Shown here: positions 6,700-20,000 of the stretch, in pieces
Numbering within the stretch: the stretch's first letter is position 1
Layout of the letters: each line of letters starts with the position of its first letter
From: Vicugna vicugna
Taxonomy: Eukaryota
Assembly (NCBI GenBank): GCA_013265495.1
Contig: MU057743.1
Coordinates: 82,590 to 102,589 of the forward strand
DNA: 20,000 nucleotides
Direction of reading: 5' to 3'
Program-made: the position numbers and the translations under genes
Notes under the pieces: generated by a model
Seen by the model: the letters and a program-made list of their open reading frames with translations, nothing else
What the model was told of the DNA's origin: nothing
The model's database searches: none

Positions 6700-7690
6700 T
6701 CCTGTCCCTATTAAGCATGTCTGTGGCAATATGTAATACACTCCTTAACCGTGACATTGAAGAACTGAGGTGATTCCAGCCCCTTTCCACCTGCTCAGCC
6801 CCACCTCGTCCCATACCCTGTGGATGGAGAGGACATCCCTCCCATTGTCCAGGTCCAGATGTTGGAACCATGTCCTTTCTCTCTCTTTCTCTTGCACACA
6901 CAGACAGAAAATCCAGCTTGTTAGAAAATTCTGGATACTCTGTCTTCATTAAACACCTGCTCCCTGCTCCCGGCCCTCCTAAGAGCCACCTTCAGCCCTC
7001 CTGGACACCAATAGCCTCCTGTTTCCATCTTTGCTTTCCTACAATCTCTCATCCACACAGAGTCAGAGGGAGCCTGTAAAAGCATACATTGAAGGGGTGG
7101 GTGTAGCTCAGTGGTAGGGCGCATGCTTAGCATGCGTGAGATCCTGGGTTCAATCCCCAGCATCTTCATTAAAATAAATAAATTACCTCCCCCCCAAAAC
7201 ACACAAACACAAAAGCATAAGTTGGACTACATCACCCCTCCCCTCAAAACTCACTAAACGGGTCACCATTTCATTAGGAGCCAAAGTCGTCACAAAGGCC
7301 TCAGGACCCGGCGTGCTCTGCCTCTCTGCCCACACTCTCCCCCTCACTCTGGGGGCCTCTGGCTCCGGCTCTTCCTTCTTCCTCTGGATTTATTCTGCTT
7401 CAAGTTCATTACTCCGTGAGATCTGCCAGGATTGCCTTATTCCCTCCTGCCTGCCTTCCACCCCACTGCCATCACCCGAGTTTGCTCATATGACTTTTTT
7501 TTTAATTTTTCCAAGCTCTTGCTACCCCTAACATGCTGCCTGTTTCCTCTGCTAAAACTCTGAGCCCCTAGTGATGGGGAGTCATGTCTATTTTGTGGAC
7601 TGATAAAGCCCGAGAACCTTGGGAACGGGTATAGTTAGGAGATTCCCGTATGTAGTAGGAGCTTATACACATGTGCTGAATGAATATAGA
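6700..7690 (+). mobile_element. LINE-2 3' portion, interrupted by a SINE
   Basis: L2-like tracts (catcacccctcccctcaaaac; ccaaagtc...cacaaaggcc) ending in an L2-like tail, tagtaggagcttatacacatgtgctgaatgaat. Confidence 0.6.
7094..7210 (+). mobile_element. tRNA(Ala)-derived SINE, camelid vic-1-like
   Basis: Pol III A box tagctcagtgg, B box ggttcaatccc, tail aaaataaataaattacctcccccc. TSD core aaaagcata at 7078-7086 and 7211-7219. Confidence 0.85.
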
Positions 7691-9936: not shown

Positions 9937-10367
9937 TGTTACGGAAATGACAGGTCAGCCAAGAAACAAGCACCACTCGGAGGGTTGGAGTACTCAGATT
10001 TATTACCCCGGCGGGCTCAGAGGGGCTTCTTCTCCAAACCTCTGAGCACCTCCAAGACGTGTGCATGGGGTTTTATAGGGTTAATTAAAAGCTTGGGGTA
10101 TTTGGCCAATAGGCATGGAACAGCTTTAGCAACATCATTATCACAAAAGTAGAGGCAGGGAGGCAGCAAACCAACATTTCAAGGCCAGATATTTCTCTTT
10201 GAAAATCCAGCAGGCTAGCAAAAAAACATGAACAGGGAATCAGCAAAACAACAATAATTAACTCAGATTTACAAGTTAACCCAGCAGAACTCAGATCAGT
10301 AATCCGACACTTGTTGCACTTAGATTTGTGAGTTAGCTTGTTAGCCCAGCTGGGCTTTTCCTTCACA
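9937..10367 (-). repeat. 3' LTR of the outer provirus (431 bp)
   Basis: TG...CA termini, TATAAAA 10071-10077, AATAAA 9999-10004. Homologous to 13821-14354 and 18233-18665. Confidence 0.95.
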
Positions 10368-11894
10368 TTCCCCCCTCTTGATGCTTTCACAACCCTTGTT
10401 GGAGTAAGCATCATCATTTACCTGTTGCAGGGGCTCATAATTGGAGGCTAACATCTGAAGTTTTATAGCCTCTATCCACTCACTGACAAAGTGGGTCAGG
10501 AAGTTTAGGACACAGGGCCCAAACAGCAGAACTGCAAAAATCAGGAGTAAGGGACCTATGAACGGTGCCAGCCAGGAGGTCCAGCCCCAGGGTCCTGTCC
10601 ATGGGCTCTTATCAAAAATATGTTTTCTTTTTTTCACTCGGTCTTGTAACTCTTGAACCATTCCTCTGACAATTTCTATTTGATTGGCATAAAAACATCA
10701 CTCTTCGTTTAGGAAGAGGCATAGTCCCCCCTCTTTGGCCGTGAGTTAAGTCCATACCCCTCCTGTTTTGTAAGACCACCTCGGCGAGAGAGTCAGTCTA
10801 ATTTTGCAGAGTTCCCAGTGTTTCTACTATTTGTTGGAGATCGTGGCTGAATTCACCTGTAAGCTGATAACAGTAATAAGAGGAAGAGGTGATGCCCCCA
10901 ATTCCTGTGCCTACCCCTGCTGCCACTCCGAGCCCCACTTGGAAGGGGATCAATTGTATAGCTCGTTTTATTCTCCGTGGATGCTGGTGAGTTATGACAG
11001 GGATGGGCAGACTTTGATTATTAGGCATAATGTCTATTCAGTGAGTGAGATAAGCCAAAGCACATAATCCAGCCCATCTGGCAGGGAGGCACCGTAGGCA
11101 AATTCGCCACATACAAAATAAGTCCCGTTATTAGAACACCATCCTTGTGTGGGTTGGCACCCTAGTCCCATACAGTGAGTGGTTTTAATACATTGATTTA
11201 TAGTTAGATTGCCTTCTAAAGGATTAGTTCCATTGTTGAAATAACATTCTGGTGCCTTGTAGGCGAGCTGTACCCAGTTCAGCCTGGAACTCCTAGTGGA
11301 AGAAACGGCATCGCTATGAGTTGTGGTGAAAGTCTTATTGAGGCTTGTCAAAGGTAAAGCCAGGTGCTGGATGGGGCCAGGACACAAGCATAGCCAGCAA
11401 TCTTTAGCCAGGTCTGGATTGGAATGTTTGAGAATCCCATGGACTGCGGCAAACAGCCCATTTATTTGTGGATCCAGATCCCGAGGCTCGGCTAAAGATG
11501 GAAGTTTTATTGGCTTCCATGTAGGTAATAACTTCTAGTGTTGCCTCTGGACTGCTTGTTGAACAGCTTGCTGGCATGCCTAGTCCTGTACCCCTCCTCC
11601 ATCACTCATCCCATAATGTGTTTGCTTGGTCCAGCACACCAGCTTGCAGGGTGTGCCATAGCATTTGATGCTAGATACATAAGAAGCCTTAATTGTGCCA
11701 ATCCAGTAGGATTTTCCCTGATATGTGCACTCTGAAGCGCAGTCATAGCATTGACTCGGCTGATAAGTATAAGCTGAAAATACAGGCCGGTACATGGACC
11801 ACCTGTCACCCGGTTCCATGCAGGTGCATTGTACAGCCAAGGAGAGTGAGGGTATTAGCGTCAGTAACATCAGACTTATGATTATCTTAGACAT
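10341..11894 (-). pseudogene. env: Gamma-type envelope, HERV-W/syncytin-1 (RDR group)-like, disrupted
   Basis: Signal peptide MSKIIISLMLLTLIPSLSLA, MSDGGGVQD, NPDLAKDCWLCL (CxxC), furin site RRIKR, fusion peptide AIQLIPFQVGLGV, ISD LQNRRGMDL/LTAKEGGLC, CX6CC remnant CLFLNEE*C, TM anchor WLAPFIGPLLLIFAVLLFGPC. Stops at 11580, 11535, 10798 and ~10698; frameshifts near 11040 and 10747. Confidence 0.95.
10368..10379 (-). other. Polypurine tract of the outer provirus
   Basis: aagaggggggaa immediately precedes the LTR TG on the minus strand. Confidence 0.9.
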
Positions 11895-12271
11895 GATGCT
11901 GCGGTGATGGCACTGCACAAAAGAAGATATAAAATAGCTATCAGGATTCTATGGCCTATGTTCCAGTCAGGTGGGGCGGCACTAGCTAGCCCCACTGCTA
12001 GTACGCAGACTGGTATAGAAAACAAGGAAAGAGGCAAGGGAGCACAAAAAAATACATTTAACAGCTGCGTTGAGCTTTCCTCAAGCTTCAGCCGTGCGTT
12101 GACTAGCCAGCTTCCGGGTGTGGCTAGAGCAGGGCTCGTCGATCCTTTTCTGGTCCCTCTTGATCTTGATCTTGAGCGGGTCTCCCGGGACACTCTCAAT
12201 TTTCCAGGCACCCTCTGTCTGAGGTGCAGTCGCTCTCTTGACCCTGGAGTGGTGGATCCAAGGGATGATTC
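11882..12271 (-). CDS. Candidate accessory ORF/exon: Arg-Ser-rich part overlapping the IN tail, followed by two hydrophobic segments in the pol-env gap
   Basis: 129 sense codons from ttgcag|GAA to a TAA just inside env. No in-frame ATG. Confidence 0.4.
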   Translation of the reverse strand, partial: ESSLGSTTPGSRERLHLRQRVPGKLRVSRETRSRSRSRGTRKGSTSPALATPGSWLVNARLKLEESSTQLLNVFFCAPLPLSLFSIPVCVLAVGLASAAPPDWNIGHRILIAILYLLLCSAITAASCLR

Positions 12272-13820
12272 CTGCAACTTTAACAGCTGTAGGAGTAGTT
12301 AATACCACTAAATATGGTCCCTTCCATGTTGGTTTGAGAGGTTCCTTTTTCCAATCCTTCACCCATACCTGGTCACCTGGTTTATGGGGATGCACTTGAA
12401 CCCCTAATGAAATGGGGGTTTTCTCTATCACCCAACCCCAAAATTCTCGTAGTACTTTTCCTAGTTCCAACAGTTTTTGGTGGATCCCTAAATTTCCTAT
12501 TTCTGGGGTGGGATTTCTCATCCTGACTAAAGGTGGTGGTCGCCCATAGAGGATTTCATAGGGAGAGTACCCAATATTAAATCTTGGGGTGCATCTAATT
12601 CGCAACAGAGCCAGGGTAGAATGTCCACCCAGGGGAGTTGGGTTTCTTGGCTGATTTTAGCTATAATTTGTTTTAGAGTTCTGTTCATTTGTTCCACCTT
12701 CCCTGAGCTTCGAGGCCAGTATGCTGTGTGCAGGTTTCAGCGGATGCTCAGTGCCTTTGCCACTTGCTGTACAATTTCTGACACAAAGGCATGTCCATTG
12801 TCAGACCCGATGGAGGTAGGCACTCCAAATCGAGGGATAACATCCCTGAGAAGAGCCTTTGTCACTTCCCTTGCTTTCTCTGTCCTGGTGGGGTAGGCCT
12901 CTACCCACCCTGTGAAGGTGCAGACGAAAACCAGCAGGTACTTATATCCCTTACTGGGCCCAAGTTCAGTAAAGTCCACTTCTAAATCTTCAAAGGGAGC
13001 CAATCCACATCGTTGTATTCCCATTGGCCCAGTGAGCCCTTGTTTTGGATTGTTTTGTGCACAGAGCAAGCAGCGTTGGGAAACTGATGCACATAGAGTA
13101 GGGAGACGAGAAATTAGGAAATATCGCTTTAAGAGGGCCTCCAAAGCCGTTTTTCCCATATGTGTGGCTTCGTGTTGTTGTTGGACTAAATGATAAGCTA
13201 GTCGTTCTGGGGTGAAAACCCTTCCATCCATCATGATCCACCATCCGTCCTTTCCTTTCTCCCCTCGTTCAGCCTGTGCCCACTTGTTTTCTTCGTGACT
13301 ATATTCTGGAGCAGTGGGTAGCTCTGGCGCTGCCATAACTTTAATTGCTGAGTGTTCCCAGGCGGCTGCTTCTCTTGCCTTTTTATCAGCTAGCCTGTTC
13401 CCCTGGCTCACAGGGTCATTTCCTCTTTGGTGTCCCTTACAGTGAAAAACAGCCACTTCCTTTGGATCCCATACTGTCTCCAGTAACTGTAAAATTTCTT
13501 CTTTGTTTTTGATTTCTTTTCCCCTGCAGTCAAAAGTCCTCTCTCCTTATAGATGGCTCCATGTACATGCAAGTTTGCAAATGCATATTTGGAATCAGTG
13601 TATATATTGATTTGCTTTTCTTTCCCTTCCCTTAGTGCCTGGAACAGTGCCCAGATCTCTGCTCGCTGAGCAGACCATCCTGGGGGAAGGGACACTACCT
13701 TTATTACCTCTCGGGTTGTAGTTACAGCATAACCTGCACGCCGTTGTCCAACTTGCATGTAACACCTGCCGTCTCTGAAAAGTTCCAGGTCTGGGTTTTG
13801 CAGGGGCTTGTCGGTTAGAT
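12081..13820 (-). pseudogene. pol: pol 3' part of the outer provirus: RNase H and integrase
   Basis: SAQRAE, NIYTDSKYAF, HHCC (HEATH...CLLC), VDFTE, GSDNG, GKVEQMNR, WKGPY. Frameshifts near 13520 and 12613; stop at 12737. Confidence 0.96.
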
Positions 13821-14354
13821 TGTGAATGAAAAGCCCAGGTGGACTAACATGCTAACTCACAAATCTATGTGTAACAAGTGTCGGATTACCGATCTGAGTT
13901 CTGCTGGGCTAACTTGTAAACCTGAGTTAATTATTGTTGGTTTGCTGATTCCCTGTTCATGTTTTATTTTTTCCTAGCCAGCTGGATGTTCACAGAGAAA
14001 TATCTGGCCTTGAAATGTTGGTTTGCTGCCTCCCTGCCTCTACTTTGGTGATAATGATGTTGCTAAAGCTGTTCATGCCTATTGGCCAAATACCCTAAGC
14101 TTGTAATTAACCCTATAAAACCTCATTGCACACGTCTTGGAGGTGCTCAGAGCTTCGGAGCAGAAGCACCTCTGAGCCCGCCAGCACAAATACCCTGAGC
14201 TTGTAATTAACTATATAAAACCTCATGCACATGTCTTGGAGGTGCTCAGAGCTTCGGCGCAGAAGCCCCTCTGAGCCCGCCAGCGTAATAAATCTGAGTA
14301 ATCCAACCCTCCGAGTAGTGCTTGTTTCTAGGCTGTCCTGTCATTTCCATAACA
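13821..14354 (+). repeat. 5' LTR of the inner provirus (534 bp, including a 100-bp tandem duplication)
   Basis: TG...CA termini, TATA boxes at 14114 and 14212, AATAAA 14287-14292, followed by a PBS. Confidence 0.95.
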
Positions 14355-14358
14355 TTTC

Positions 14359-14376
14359 TGGAGGCCCCAGCGAGAT
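14359..14376 (+). promoter_or_regulatory. Primer binding site, tRNA-Thr
   Basis: TGGAGGCCCCAGCGAGAT is complementary to the tRNA-Thr 3' end (ATCTCGCTGGGGCCTCCA). It lies 4 nt after the LTR. Confidence 0.85.
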
Positions 14377-14580
14377 ACTACCATGCCGAATTTTGAGCCG
14401 CTGGACTGGTGGCTCCGGCCGACCGGGGGACGGATCTCAGGCAGCGAACGGAGGTGGCGCAGACCGACGGTATTCAGGGTTCGCTTTCGTGAAGGCAACT
14501 CGGCCCCCCGGTTGGCTGGGCTACAACCAGAGCCAGACTCCGTGGAGGGACGGACAGACTCACCAGGTGCCCGTCTGGAC

Positions 14581-14589
14581 AAGGTAGGA
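14581..14589 (+). promoter_or_regulatory. Putative major splice donor
   Basis: AAG|GTAGGA about 200 nt after the PBS, a typical position. Confidence 0.55.
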
Positions 14590-14599
14590 TCCCCTGGGA

Positions 14600-14749
14600 G
14601 GAATCAGGTCCTGTCCCATTGGACAGAAGAGGAGGCTGATCCCCTCCTACAGGCTCTCCGTCTGATGGTATTTCAGACGGGGAAATCAGGAATCAGGTCA
14701 GGAATCATGTCCCAGTGGACAGAAGAGGAGGCTGATCCACTCCTACAGG
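14600..14749 (+). repeat. Direct repeat of ~45-50 bp in the leader
   Basis: tgtccca(t/g)tggacagaagaggaggctgatcc(c/a)ctcctacagg at 14612-14653 and 14708-14749. Confidence 0.9.
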
Positions 14750-15629
14750 AAACAGGATATTGGAATTGGTGGGAGGACTGTTGTTAACCTGTGTGTGTGC
14801 GTGTGTGAGGGAATGAGAGGCCTGTGAATCATGCGATCAGGCTCGAGTTTGTAGCTCCATGGCATTCTTCTACGGAGTTCGAGAGAGTCCCAACCTGCGG
14901 TTCCGTGGTGACCTCATATGGCTCAGGGAGCTATCGGTCCCTCAGGGTCCCCATCGGGGTCAGCGGCTTATACTGACCCGCCAAAGCTAAGAGGCACCTT
15001 CGTCCCCGCGAGGAGAGCGGCCAGGAGGACGCAACGTAAACCCACCCTTGTCTTGTCTGCGACACCCGCACAGGGTGGCTACACTGGGAGGGAGAAGGAT
15101 ATAGACAGCCAATGAGTCAACGCCCCGGTGCCCTCGGAGGCTAGGATGCTATTTCTTTGAGAAAGTCTCCTACCTGTCCCTGTCACAGAACACCCAAGTC
15201 TTAGTGTTCCCCTACTGAACTGAACCAAGTCGTGCCCCTTTTGCCTAGCATCAGACCATCAGGATTCAAGTTAAGAAGACGAATTCCTTTAGGACCGGGC
15301 TTGCCCGGCCCTGAAGGTCCCTTTTCTAGTCCATTTGTTTTACCATCTGCCGACAGGCAAACGCCCCTGATACGTTAGTTCAGAATGTAGAGAGGATTTA
15401 ATGAAGAAAGTCCCTGAAACTGCTTGAGGCCTTGAGATCCAGAGACATTAGCTGTGACTGGAATCCAGAGTCCCTGAACAAGTTAGCCTAAAAACAAATC
15501 ATAGACCCAGCAAGAGAGCAGTCTCTCTGGGAACTCCGGTGTTTTGAAGAGTGAAGAAGAAAAAGATATAAAGGCTACCTTCCCAAACATCTAAAGCAAA
15601 AGAACTATTATCCTTAAACATCTAAAAGA

Positions 15630-17200
15630 CTGGGAGGCCCTAAGTGAAAACCCACCACTCTAGACTGCATGATAAAGAATTTCAAAACGGGGTTCTCGGG
15701 AGACTGTGGAATTCGAATGACCCCTGGCAGGCTCCGCACTTTGTGTGAGCTTGAATGGACTGCCTTTGGAGTCGGGTGGCCCTCAGGAGGAACTCTGGAC
15801 CTAGCAACAGTGCAAGCAGTTTATCAAATAATCACTGGAACCCCAGGACACCCAGATCAATTCCCTTGCATTGACTCCTGGCTGAATATCGCCCACAATC
15901 TACCCCCATGGTTTCGGTTTTGCTAAAATGGACCTGGACAATGCAAGATATTAGCAGCTCAGCCGGTGCAGACCAAAAAGACAGACAGAAAGAAGCCGAT
16001 TTTCTAGGGAGATGCAGAAGACGAGATGTGCCTGCCCCCTCCATATGCCCCCAAGGCACAAACACCTCCAGTCCCATTGGAGAACCACCACCCTCTGTGT
16101 CACCACCTCCCCAAACTGAGGACCCAGAGGCAGAGCCCAGCCCCCAGCCTGAGCCGGTAGGGAGGAGACTCCGCTCAGCACAAGCCGAGAAGCCAGCACC
16201 ACCGGCCCTCCAAATGCAGCTGCCGGAGACACAAGGGCCGCAGCAAGTTGGGGAAGACGGGACTGTTCAGCCCGGGCACCCCGTACACTACTACCAACCT
16301 TTTAGCACCACAGACCTTCTCAATTGGCGCCATCACACTCCTTCCTACTCTGAAAAGCCGCAGGCTATGATTGACCTCATAGAGTCTATCTTCCATTCTC
16401 ACCGGCCCACCTGGGAAGATGTCCGCCAGCTGCTTCTGACTCTTTTCAATACAGAGGAAAGGAGACGCATTCTCACTGAAGCACGAAAATGGCTGCAGGG
16501 CCCAGCACCTGGGGACACAATGGATGTTGAACTGTGGGCCATGACACGTGCCCCTGACACCAGACCACATTGGGACTTTAATACCCAAGAAGGAAGAGAA
16601 GCACTACGTGAAAACTGGGAGGCCATCCTACAAGGGCTAAAAGCAGGAGCCAAGAAGCCAACTAACATGTCTAAAGCGACCACGGTGACCCAGAGGCCAG
16701 ACGAAACCCCCACTGACTTCTATGAGAGACTATGTGAAGCATTCCAGGTCTACACTCCTTTTGATCCTGAGGCCCAAGAAAACCAACGGATGGTCAACGC
16801 TGCCTTCGTAGCCCAATCATACCCAGATATACGCCGGAAACTCCAAAAACTGGATGGATTCGCAGGGATGAACACTACACAGCTGCTGGAAGTAGCAAAC
16901 AAAGTTTTTGTAAACCGAGAACGGGAATCCCAACCAGAAGCAGACCAGCGAATGAAGCAGAAAGCCGCGCTCCTTGCAGCAGCCCTGGGGAAAGCAAGCT
17001 TCAGCCAGAATCCTGCACCACTTCGGAACAGGGGACCCCAACCAAGGATGCCTCTGGGCCGAGACCAGTGTGCATACTGCCGGGAGACAGGGCACTGGAA
17101 GAACGAGTGCCCAAACAGAAAGGATAGAAAGAGAGCACTCCCTAAAAGGCCTACTTATCAGCTGGAGCCACCAGCCAGTAATCACATCGGACTGGCTGGG
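15630..17200 (+). pseudogene. gag: gag of the inner provirus (MA disrupted; CA-NC open up to the gap)
   Basis: Start codon position reads CTG-GGA. MA motif LCELEWTAFGVGWPSGGTLD, PPPY late domain at 16035-16046, YYQPFSTTDLLNW, MHR VTQRPDETPTDFYERL, single Zn knuckle CAYCRETGHWKNEC. Stops in MA and a frameshift after PPPY. Confidence 0.95.
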
Positions 17201-17794
17201 NNNNNNNNNNNNNNNNNNNNNNNNNNNNNNNNNNNNNNNNNNNNNNNNNNNNNNNNNNNNNNNNNNNNNNNNNNNNNNNNNNNNNNNNNNNNNNNNNNNN
17301 NNNNNNNNNNNNNNNNNNNNNNNNNNNNNNNNNNNNNNNNNNNNNNNNNNNNNNNNNNNNNNNNNNNNNNNNNNNNNNNNNNNNNNNNNNNNNNNNNNNN
17401 NNNNNNNNNNNNNNNNNNNNNNNNNNNNNNNNNNNNNNNNNNNNNNNNNNNNNNNNNNNNNNNNNNNNNNNNNNNNNNNNNNNNNNNNNNNNNNNNNNNN
17501 NNNNNNNNNNNNNNNNNNNNNNNNNNNNNNNNNNNNNNNNNNNNNNNNNNNNNNNNNNNNNNNNNNNNNNNNNNNNNNNNNNNNNNNNNNNNNNNNNNNN
17601 NNNNNNNNNNNNNNNNNNNNNNNNNNNNNNNNNNNNNNNNNNNNNNNNNNNNNNNNNNNNNNNNNNNNNNNNNNNNNNNNNNNNNNNNNNNNNNNNNNNN
17701 NNNNNNNNNNNNNNNNNNNNNNNNNNNNNNNNNNNNNNNNNNNNNNNNNNNNNNNNNNNNNNNNNNNNNNNNNNNNNNNNNNNNNNNNNNNNNN
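17201..17794. other. Assembly gap (594 N)
   Basis: Run of N. Expected to contain the gag stop, protease and RT N-terminus. Confidence 1.
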
Positions 17795-17960
17795 GAACTC
17801 GAGCCCTCCTAGGGTTACTCCAAACAACTGGGTACAAGGTCTCGTGGAAAAAGGCCCAGATCTGCATAAAGACAGTCAAATACTTGGGATTTATTATCTC
17901 AGAGGGACACCGAGCCCTAGGACCAGAACGAAAGCAAGTTATCTGCACCATACCCATACC
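17795..17960 (+). pseudogene. pol: RT fragment of the inner provirus
   Basis: [34 protein letters not shown]; inverted copy of 19316-19481. Confidence 0.9.
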
Positions 17961-18259
17961 GAGTGGAGAAAAGAAAACATATTTTAGATAAGAGCCCATG
18001 GACAGGACCCTGGGGCTTGACCTCCTGGCTGGCACCGTTCATAGGTCCCTAACTCCTGATTTTTGTAGTTCTGCTGTTTAGGCCCTGTGTCCTAAAATTC
18101 CTGAACCACTTTGTCAGTGAGCAGATAGAGACTGTAAAACTTCAGAAGTTAAAATCCAATTATGAGCCCCTGCAACAGGTAAATGATGATGCTTACTCCA
18201 AAAAGGATTGTGAAAGCATCAAGAGGGGGGAATGTGAAGGAAAAGCCCAGCTGGGCTAA
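17958..18259 (+). pseudogene. env: env TM/cytoplasmic-tail remnant of the inner provirus, including PPT 18221-18232
   Basis: Homologous to 10341-10642 (inverted): TSWLAPFIGP...NYEPLQQVNDDAYS. Confidence 0.9.
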
Positions 18260-18665
18260 CAAGCTAACTCACAAATCTAAGTGCAACAAGTGTCGGATTA
18301 CTGATCTGAGTTCTGCTGGGCTAACTTGTAATTCTGAGTTAATTATTGTTGGTTTGCTGATTCCCTGTTCATGTTTCTTTTTGCTAGCCAGCTGGATGTT
18401 CAAAGAGAAATATCTGGCCTTGAAATGTTGGTTTGCTGCCTCCCTGCCTCTACTTTTGTGATAATGATGTTGCTAAAGCTGTTCCATGCCTATTGGCCAA
18501 ATACCCCAAGCTTGTATTAAACCCTATAAAACCTCATGCACACGTCTTGGAGGTGCTCAGAGCTTCGGAGCAGAAGCCCCTCTGAGACTGCTGGGGTAAT
18601 AAATCTGAATACTCCAACCCTCCGAGTGGTGCTTGTTTCTTGGCTGGCCTGTCATTTCCATAACA
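18233..18665 (+). repeat. 3' LTR of the inner provirus (433 bp)
   Basis: Follows the PPT aagaggggggaa. TG...CA termini, TATAAAA 18525, AATAAA 18598. Confidence 0.95.
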
Positions 18666-20000
18666 AGGTCAGGCCTGCTTGTATACACCTCTTCAATGAT
18701 TCCTTCGCAGTTGTGGTCAGTCTGCCCTTCCCCCTCAGGCAAATGTGTGTCTGGGTTTAAGGTTTGCACAGTCTCTAGACGGATTCTTGGATTTTCACAT
18801 AGAAGCCACTGGTAGTGAGTCATCCTTGTGTTAGTTATCCCTTTGTAACCTGGGCCATTCATCAGGGCCACCACAGAATTGGGCACTTTTGCATATAAAT
18901 TCTGTCCCAGTGTGAGTTTGTCTGCCTCATTGACCAGGAGGGCTGTGGCATCCAGGGCCCATAAACAGGGTGGCCATCCTGATGCTACAGGGTCCAGTCT
19001 TTTAGATAAATAGGCCACAGGGCGCTGCCATGGCCCCACATTCTGAGTTAGGACTCCAAGAGCAGTTTGGTCTCTTTCATGTACAAACAAATTAAACTCT
19101 CGTGTTTCATCTGGTAAGTCTAGTGGTGGGGATAGAGTTAGTAGTTTCTTTAATTGATTGCCTAAAGTTCTTGTTTAGTTTCCCATTTGAGGGTTTCTTT
19201 TCCTGATCCAGCAGTTGCTTCGTAGAGGGGCTTGGCTGTTCTTGAAAACCCGGGGATCCAGATCCCTCAAAACCCAGCTGCGACCAGGAACCCTCGCAGT
19301 TTTCTTTTTGTTTCTGGTGTGGGTATGGCGTAAATAACTTGCTTTCGTTCTGGTCCTAGGGCTCGGTGTCCCTCTGAGATAATAAATCCCAAGTATTTGA
19401 CTGTCTTTATGCAGATCTGGGCCTTTTTCCACGAGACCTTGTACCCAGTTGTTTGGAGTAACCCTAGGAGGGCTCGAGTTCTTTCCAACAGTCCTCTTCA
19501 CTGGGGCTGGCTAACAGCAAGTCATCCACATACTGGAGCAGAGTACAGTTTAATGTTTTCCTAGGGAATTTTACAAGGTCTGCGGCTAGTGCCTCTCCGA
19601 ACAAGGTGGGCGAGTTTTAAAGCCTTGGGGGAGACGTGTCCATGTCAGTTGAGTTTTTCCTCCTGTGTGGGGATCCTCCCATTCAAATGCGAATATGGGC
19701 TGGCTCACAGGTGAGAGTGGAAGACAGAAGAAAGCATCTTTAAGGTCTAGGCATGTAAACCATTTGGCATCTGCCGGAATGAGGCCCAGAAGAGCGTATG
19801 GATTTGGCACTGCTGGATGTATTATAGTGACTACTTCATTTACTTTTCCTAAGTCCTGCACTGGCCTATAATCTGTTCCTTCTGCTTTCTTCACTGGGAG
19901 CAACGGTGTGTTCCAAGGAGATCTACACTCAGTTAGGATTCCCTCTTGTCTGAGACGCTGTATATGCTTCTGGATTTCTAGGTGGGCCTCTCGAGGCATG
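18666..20000 (-). pseudogene. pol: pol 5' part of the outer provirus: reverse transcriptase and connection domain
   Basis: [41 protein letters not shown] (19521-19532), RPVAYLSKRLDPVASGWP. Frameshifts near 19618, 19495 and 19170. Confidence 0.97.

Follow-up and report, generated by a model that had tools for sequence, protein, structure and literature searches.

The window analysed here, a stretch of 20,000 nucleotides from the Vicugna vicugna genome, carries on its minus strand a class I endogenous retrovirus (ERV) that runs from beyond position 20000 to a 3' LTR at 9937-10368. Both pol and env of this provirus are broken, and between them lies the small open reading frame (ORF) discussed here. 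The features of the locus are as follows:

9937-10368, minus strand: 3' LTR of the ORF-bearing provirus (LTR comparison)
10341-11894, minus strand: env, with TLV_coat matches (Pfam), stops and frameshifts
11882-12057, minus strand: small ORF, 58 codons long where the family copy is unbroken (frame reading, family copies)
11891-11947, minus strand: hydrophobic helix 2 of the ORF (hydropathy, AF2)
11912-11940, minus strand: env splice acceptor with its AG at 11914-11913 and 11912 as first exon base, 18 nt upstream of the env ATG (RNA contigs)
11948-11977, minus strand: conserved turn, Pro..Trp..Gly and then a basic residue (alignment of 16 natural sequences)
11978-12049, minus strand: hydrophobic helix 1, about codons 4-27 (hydropathy, AF2)
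12081-12656, minus strand: end of pol, integrase C-terminal domain MLVIN_C (Pfam)
12085-12137, minus strand: conserved block of about 55 nt at the end of pol, with an acceptor-like AG at 12125-12124 (cross-family alignment)
12286-12310, minus strand: acceptor within the codons for the integrase C-terminus, first exon base 12286 (RNA contigs)
about 13821-18665, plus strand: nested deleted copy of the same LTR family, inside the pol of the host provirus (LTR comparison)

The nested copy lies in the opposite orientation to its host provirus, and its LTRs match at 404/430 aligned bases. Its 5' LTR bears a 99-nt tandem duplication, and an assembly gap of 594 N (17201-17794) is followed within it by a short inverted piece of pol (17795-17960). 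Its leader splice donor, with the exon end at 14583, brought to light the env splice described below, and its primer-binding site at 14359-14376 (plus strand), after the 5' LTR, is presumed to resemble the 3' end of tRNA-Thr. Pfam identifies Gag_MA, Gag_p30 and one zinc knuckle in the nested copy, and assignment of the provirus to the class I (gamma-like) ERVs follows from an MLV-type MA, CA and integrase C-terminal domain together with a gamma-type Env, the gag domains in this assignment being those of the nested copy of the same LTR family. The env of the window may be of the RDR type (SDGGGx2Dx2R in SU): it encodes SDGGG-x2-D, followed in this copy by a stop. Elsewhere in the window are a tRNA-Ala(AGC) gene or tRNA-derived element at 7097-7168 on the plus strand (Rfam 50.8 bits, ARAGORN), which was the only match of an Rfam search over the window, and a degenerate 239-nt repeat present in two to three copies at 604-1143 (81% matches).

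A sequence-only reading of this window had described an env separate from pol and, filling the gap, a frame with two hydrophobic segments; both descriptions hold. The pol stop lies at 12083-12081 and the env ATG at 11894, with 186 nt in between, and the gap frame, which ends in a stop at 11884-11882, contains two 19-residue windows with Kyte-Doolittle values of 2.16 and 2.40. When the gap was put through 2000 dinucleotide shuffles, this two-segment hydrophobicity was never equalled in an open frame, and the same test on three other natural copies likewise gave 0/2000 (four sequences, three families), which rules out T-richness, raised by the same reading, as the sole cause. A 55-codon open frame alone appeared in 368/2000 shuffles of the gap, and in 12-18% across the tested sequences. 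The openness of the frame is therefore unsurprising, and it is the two-helix pattern that is surprising, because shuffles often give 55 codons and never both segments.

The ATG at 12057 had been noted as out of frame with the hydrophobic body and proposed as a start codon broken in this copy. The frame is indeed interrupted in the T run that immediately follows this ATG, the remaining body is open, and 13/40 family copies carry the ORF uninterrupted. The extent first given, 11882-12080, needs correction: the ORF is real, and the gene proper occupies 11882-12057. In the window the stop-to-stop open frame starts as far upstream as 12298 and spans 138 codons, but this longer frame with its Arg-rich N-terminus was rejected as the gene and ascribed to the break in this copy, since most family copies have an in-frame stop directly before the start position.

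A DNA search of the 2.03-Gb genome gave 43 matches to the family of the window (family A), and 40 of these loci were read one by one. An ATG and an open frame of 58-60 codons are present in 13 of the 40; in a further 14, eight of which form one near-identical young subgroup, the body is open and the start codon is other than AUG. Four loci share a stop at codon 3, three have stops in the body, and six, the window among them, have frameshifts or deletions. Retention of the frame, which the sequence-only reading had proposed to test, is evident: among 24 distinct indel-free copies, 21 keep the body open, and neither shifted frame is open in any (0/24). The closest family-A pairs look neutral (pairwise w 0.68-3.4), as is expected after insertion; what these close copies show is that the virus they descend from carried the ORF, and they do not show selection since insertion.

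The youngest subgroup comprises eight copies on eight contigs with 0-2 differences in 3542 nt, and represents a very recent burst of this ERV family; its start codon is non-AUG, and its neighbouring frames are uninterrupted over the bases examined. At locus L037 the ORF is fused to env through a deletion. Two deletion lineages have been amplified: one (L064-L076) has lost the ORF and SU together, and a second (L021 and similar) keeps the ORF and has env deleted after about 43 codons. Since the youngest subgroup without an AUG, the four copies with an early stop and a deletion lineage have all spread, the ORF is not essential for spread in the genome.

When a natural intact ORF was used as the query, a protein search of the genome gave 99 matches. 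All 20 distant matches that were fetched lie directly after the end of integrase (about 32-57% identity); the env downstream matches that of the window at 18 of these loci and is unlike it at two. They comprise a sister family, A2, at 57% identity; family B, with 17 loci at about 32-46% identity and an env with a short SU; and family C, with two loci whose env is unmatched by that of the window. The family-B env (L042-L054, L057-L060) consists of a signal peptide followed within about 60 residues by the C-terminal region of SU, so that its SU is without a receptor-binding domain of the usual size. The family-C copies (L055, L056 and nearby matches) cluster on contig C10646, with six matches, which suggests segmental duplication. 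As these searches select for the ORF itself, ascertainment was lessened by an ORF-blind search with a DNA motif upstream of it. This gave 94 matches, of which 11 were chance-like by their spacer and 83 family-like; 67 of the latter have the ORF downstream (by comparison of match tables), three are tandem duplicates and 13, all of them fetched, belong to one deletion lineage. No intact junction without the ORF was found among the 83.

A profile search of public proteins retrieved 28 matches of near-equal length, four of them already in the query, and four longer ones. All come from metagenome assemblies, and most likely derive from host DNA. Two of the longer proteins have MLVIN_C ahead of the ORF, and two run into the start of an env of a fourth kind, so that the ORF precedes at least four unlike env types. 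The C-terminal end lies exactly 26 residues after the conserved Trp in 24/33 homologues, as in family A, and the start 31-32 residues before it in 18/33. Gene callers name family members 'hypothetical' or misname them, and there is no Pfam model. Five of the nine matches of one protein search were dropped as long proteins with short matched stretches (P0001, on inspection, is repetitive). A single-sequence word search with the ORF and a search of a plasmid collection gave no match to it, and a scan of metagenome contigs gave three loci with matches of just 12-15 residues. This spread over several ERV families and, apparently, hosts, which the sequence-only reading had missed, is the stronger point in favour of a gene.

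From the first codon on, natural copies can be aligned across families with no gaps, and nine between-family pairs were compared by NG86 counts. With transition bias uncorrected, and with pairs that share sequences and so are not independent, pS was 0.42-0.86, pN 0.17-0.47 and pN/pS 0.36-0.63 (Fisher p 1e-2 to 5e-8), the low pN in families B and C being favoured because both were found by protein similarity. In the shifted sense frames (six pairs) pN/pS was 0.75-1.14, with no p value under 0.06. Codons 1-36, which lie clear of the env acceptor, retain the signal (pN/pS 0.24-0.68), and codons 37-58 in one pair gave pN/pS 1.00. An excess of synonymous change that is specific to the frame is what is expected of a protein-coding viral gene, and the synonymous bias on which the original proposal hinged is thus present between families, where the ORF shows frame-specific purifying selection. 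The constraint is much weaker than that on integrase (pN/pS 0.11); moderate constraint is usual for accessory proteins.

AlphaFold2 predicts helices at residues 7-27 and 32-57 (pLDDT 69, pTM 0.38). In the 16 aligned natural sequences Leu24, Pro29 and Trp32 are invariant, the turn having the motif Pro-x-x-Trp-x-x-Gly-x-basic, with the basic residue before helix 2. A Cys is usually found near each end of the peptide, and most of the 33 homologues have 0-1 charged residues per helix, with Ser, Thr and Cys present. Helix 1 ends in small residues resembling a signal-peptide cleavage site and may be a signal-anchor or a cleavable signal; the topology would then be either a hairpin whose turn faces the cytosol, its two ends lying on the same side, or one in which cleavage follows helix 1. 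Pfam searches with the window ORF and 16 homologues gave chance-level matches only, and Foldseek against viral structures and the PDB retrieved nothing more specific than hairpins of the PsbZ kind, with no match reaching E <= 0.001. PsbZ was also the best match of a PDB profile search (E 0.045), which was set aside as convergence. The best match in the ESM Atlas (0.88) is bacterial and is a lead only.

RNA contigs from two runs in two studies contain a joint between 14584 (plus) and 11911 (minus). The contigs carry no strand, and the sequences in these runs are related to the window without coming from its own locus (share of words at most 0.36). The joint is one base off both the leader donor of the nested copy and the AG at 11914-11913, an offset that would fit a transcribed copy with another first exon base, and it reads as the env splice of the family, landing in helix 2, where coding sequence and the pyrimidine tract of the env acceptor coincide. 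This joint was absent from one other run (X15), and a raw-read run (X24) gave zero reads on the stretch. Since env has an acceptor of its own inside the ORF, neither leaky scanning nor a bicistronic message in the style of Vpu is required for its expression.

For the ORF itself two acceptors come into question. A GT..AG joint from 12698, a cryptic donor, to 12286 was seen once, in one run. The AG at 12125-12124 (exon from 12123) is a candidate acceptor for an ORF mRNA, and the block of about 55 nt around it is 85-93% identical between families, where third positions of the ORF are near saturation. The ORF starts 65-66 nt behind this block in family A and in 10/17 family-B loci, and about 110 nt behind it in family C. 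The block may be conserved at the RNA level, as an acceptor, an enhancer or an export signal; its predicted fold is no better than that of shuffles (z -1.09). None of the 15 joints listed, out of 24, connects the leader donor to either acceptor (12123 or 12286). The 392 nt that separate 12286 from the env ATG contain a single ATG (shuffle mean 5.4, p 0.008), compared with 2-13 ATGs in each of 31 control windows, and 26/38 family-A copies have no ATG between 12286 and the ORF start. In family B only 1/17 loci are ATG-free from the pol acceptor and 4/17 from the block acceptor, but the extra ATGs fall mostly at CpG sites of family A, and decay may explain them. The AUG context of the ORF is weak, and the AUG-poor stretch in family A would allow leaky scanning to env.

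The best explanation of these results, and one that we hold to be probable, is that the gap contains a genuine viral gene for a two-helix membrane microprotein of 57-60 residues, inherited with the 3' part of pol and kept through exchanges of env. The gene would belong to a clade of class I (gamma-like) ERVs in which env has apparently been swapped several times. Under this proposal the ORF would be read from a spliced mRNA of its own, formed when the leader donor is joined to one of the acceptors near the pol end (12123 or 12286), on which in family A its AUG would be the first; the peptide would insert in the membrane as a helical hairpin; and it would serve as an accessory factor, needed in some infection settings and dispensable for germ-line copying.

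Of the alternatives, the one that survives best, and still an improbable one, is that the frame is a regulatory upstream ORF or the by-product of an RNA signal, its hydrophobicity supplied by a T-rich acceptor and its translation serving only to tune the output of Env or Pol. Such an origin would account for the coincidence of helix 2 with the pyrimidine tract of an acceptor seen in RNA, for the relaxed codons 37-58 in one pair and the weak AUG context, and for the conserved RNA block just upstream. It does not account for codons 1-36, where amino acids are kept while synonymous sites saturate, the opposite of RNA constraint, nor for the failure of shuffles in four sequences from three families to reproduce the pattern, nor for a length and turn motif that are held across hosts. 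Considerably less probable again is a relic, either the signal peptide or leader of an older, replaced env or an N-terminal extension of Env. The end of helix 1 is suggestive in this respect, env capture is evident from the unlike env types, and L037 illustrates how a deletion can fuse the ORF to env; yet the ORF terminates at a stop of its own whose position does not vary between families and which lies ahead of env or out of frame with it, every env has its own signal peptide, no intact fusion of the ORF to Env is found among the four longer public matches, and a pN/pS near 0.5 across saturated synonymous divergence is unexpected of a relic.

It is a shade less probable still that the ORF encodes a C-terminal membrane anchor of integrase or Pol, reached by programmed frameshift or read-through. 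Three public proteins do join integrase to the ORF (P0048, P0049, P0019), and the family-B ORF is in the +1 frame of pol, but these fusions have the appearance of copies in decay, the ORF occupies different frames with respect to pol (+2 in A, +1 in B), and in both families a stop in the ORF frame stands immediately before the AUG. The least probable proposal, that selection acts on an antisense frame (11868-12302, plus strand, 144 codons) like the antisense retroviral frames HBZ and ASP, with the sense ORF as its shadow, draws on the frame that shares third positions having the same pN/pS and being stop-free in families A, A2 and C, but founders on three stops in each of the two family-B copies tested with an open sense ORF, and on start, stop and hydrophobic pattern being conserved on the sense strand.

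Returning to the microprotein, its function, given translation, can be approached only through its predicted shape. We lean slightly towards a protein that binds a host or Env membrane protein in the bilayer and reroutes or neutralises it; whether such binding amounts to antagonism of a restriction factor or to a trafficking aid is a guess. An ion-channel viroporin is unlikely, and some other function, though marginally less so, is also doubtful. Binding in the bilayer appears likelier than a channel because the peptide has no adaptor-recruiting tail and almost no charged helix residues.

Gamma-like retroviruses are taught as having gag, pro-pol and env only, apart from glycoGag or pre-gag ORFs. 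In the available text of PMC1224870 accessory genes are given only for the lenti-, delta-, HML2, epsilon- and spumaviruses, with the caution that their absence is hard to ascertain. The main text of PMC4724089 describes no accessory gene between pol and env, and its supplements may bear on novelty; PMC5388530, in the part consulted, mentions only a pre-gag ORF; and the RDR motif is defined in bioRxiv 2023.10.07.561363, PMC12402889 and PMC12584738, the accessible portions of which contain nothing on this ORF. No description of it was found in searches of the open-access literature. The small gene, broken in this copy yet under protein-level selection in several related families, suggests an overlooked accessory gene in a supposedly 'simple' ERV, and there is perhaps a little better than an even chance that it represents an unrecognised family of class I accessory genes, each encoding a hairpin microprotein read from its own mRNA, older than the env swaps and present in the ERVs of more than one mammalian host. 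The family may also extend to human class I ERVs. A conserved extra gene after pol would alter the picture of the gamma-like genome and provide a clade marker, and its host membrane target would be old enough to have shaped many ERV families. This branch would then count among the 'complex' retroviruses, its hairpin peptide being a convergent counterpart of Vpu or S2 that antagonises a membrane factor of the host. Many copies of such families are transcribed, so intact ORFs may give host cells an unannotated microprotein.

The first comparison to be drawn is with HIV-1 Vpu, which has a single N-terminal transmembrane helix followed by cytoplasmic helices with a DSGxxS motif. Like vpu, the ORF is a small membrane protein gene that lies before env and overlaps its start (by 13 nt in family A), with a weak AUG and an AUG-poor leader. 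Unlike Vpu, it has two helices, at most 2-4 residues after helix 2 and no DSGxxS motif; its host virus is gamma-like rather than a lentivirus, family B has no overlap with env, and the acceptor dedicated to env lies within the ORF. Neither Pfam (16 members), the PDB profile nor Foldseek against viral structures and the PDB gave a match to the sequence or fold of Vpu at E <= 0.001. Of the viroporin- or Vpu-like helical hairpin first proposed, the hairpin is upheld by the AlphaFold2 model, and the Vpu anatomy, with its one membrane helix and cytoplasmic tail, is not.

The gene for EIAV S2 also sits between pol and env; S2 is not known to be a two-helix integral membrane peptide. Like S2 and MLV glycoGag, the peptide would be a small retroviral accessory protein, and it differs from glycoGag in that the latter is an N-terminal extension of Gag; no sequence link to either was found. 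S2 (65-68 residues) and glycoGag are unrelated accessory proteins that both act on Serinc5, a host membrane factor, according to the available text of PMC5120145.

In size and shape (under about 120 residues, with two predicted membrane helices in a hairpin) the peptide falls among the class II viroporins. With HCV p7 and picornavirus 2B it shares a length of about 60 residues, the predicted helical hairpin and a basic residue at the turn, and it differs in its almost charge-free helices and in being a separate ORF that is not cut from a polyprotein; no fold match was found. The virus itself has the Gag_MA, Gag_p30, single zinc knuckle, MLVIN_C, TLV_coat and SDGGG motif of the HERV-E/HERV-I/ERV3/HERV-T class, and from the likeness of Gag and integrase and the tRNA-Thr-like primer-binding site we tentatively place it near HERV-E/HERV-I/ERV3 and HERV-T, with a putative RDR-type env. 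A mosaic env is a further shared feature, having been described for class I HERVs in PMC4724089.
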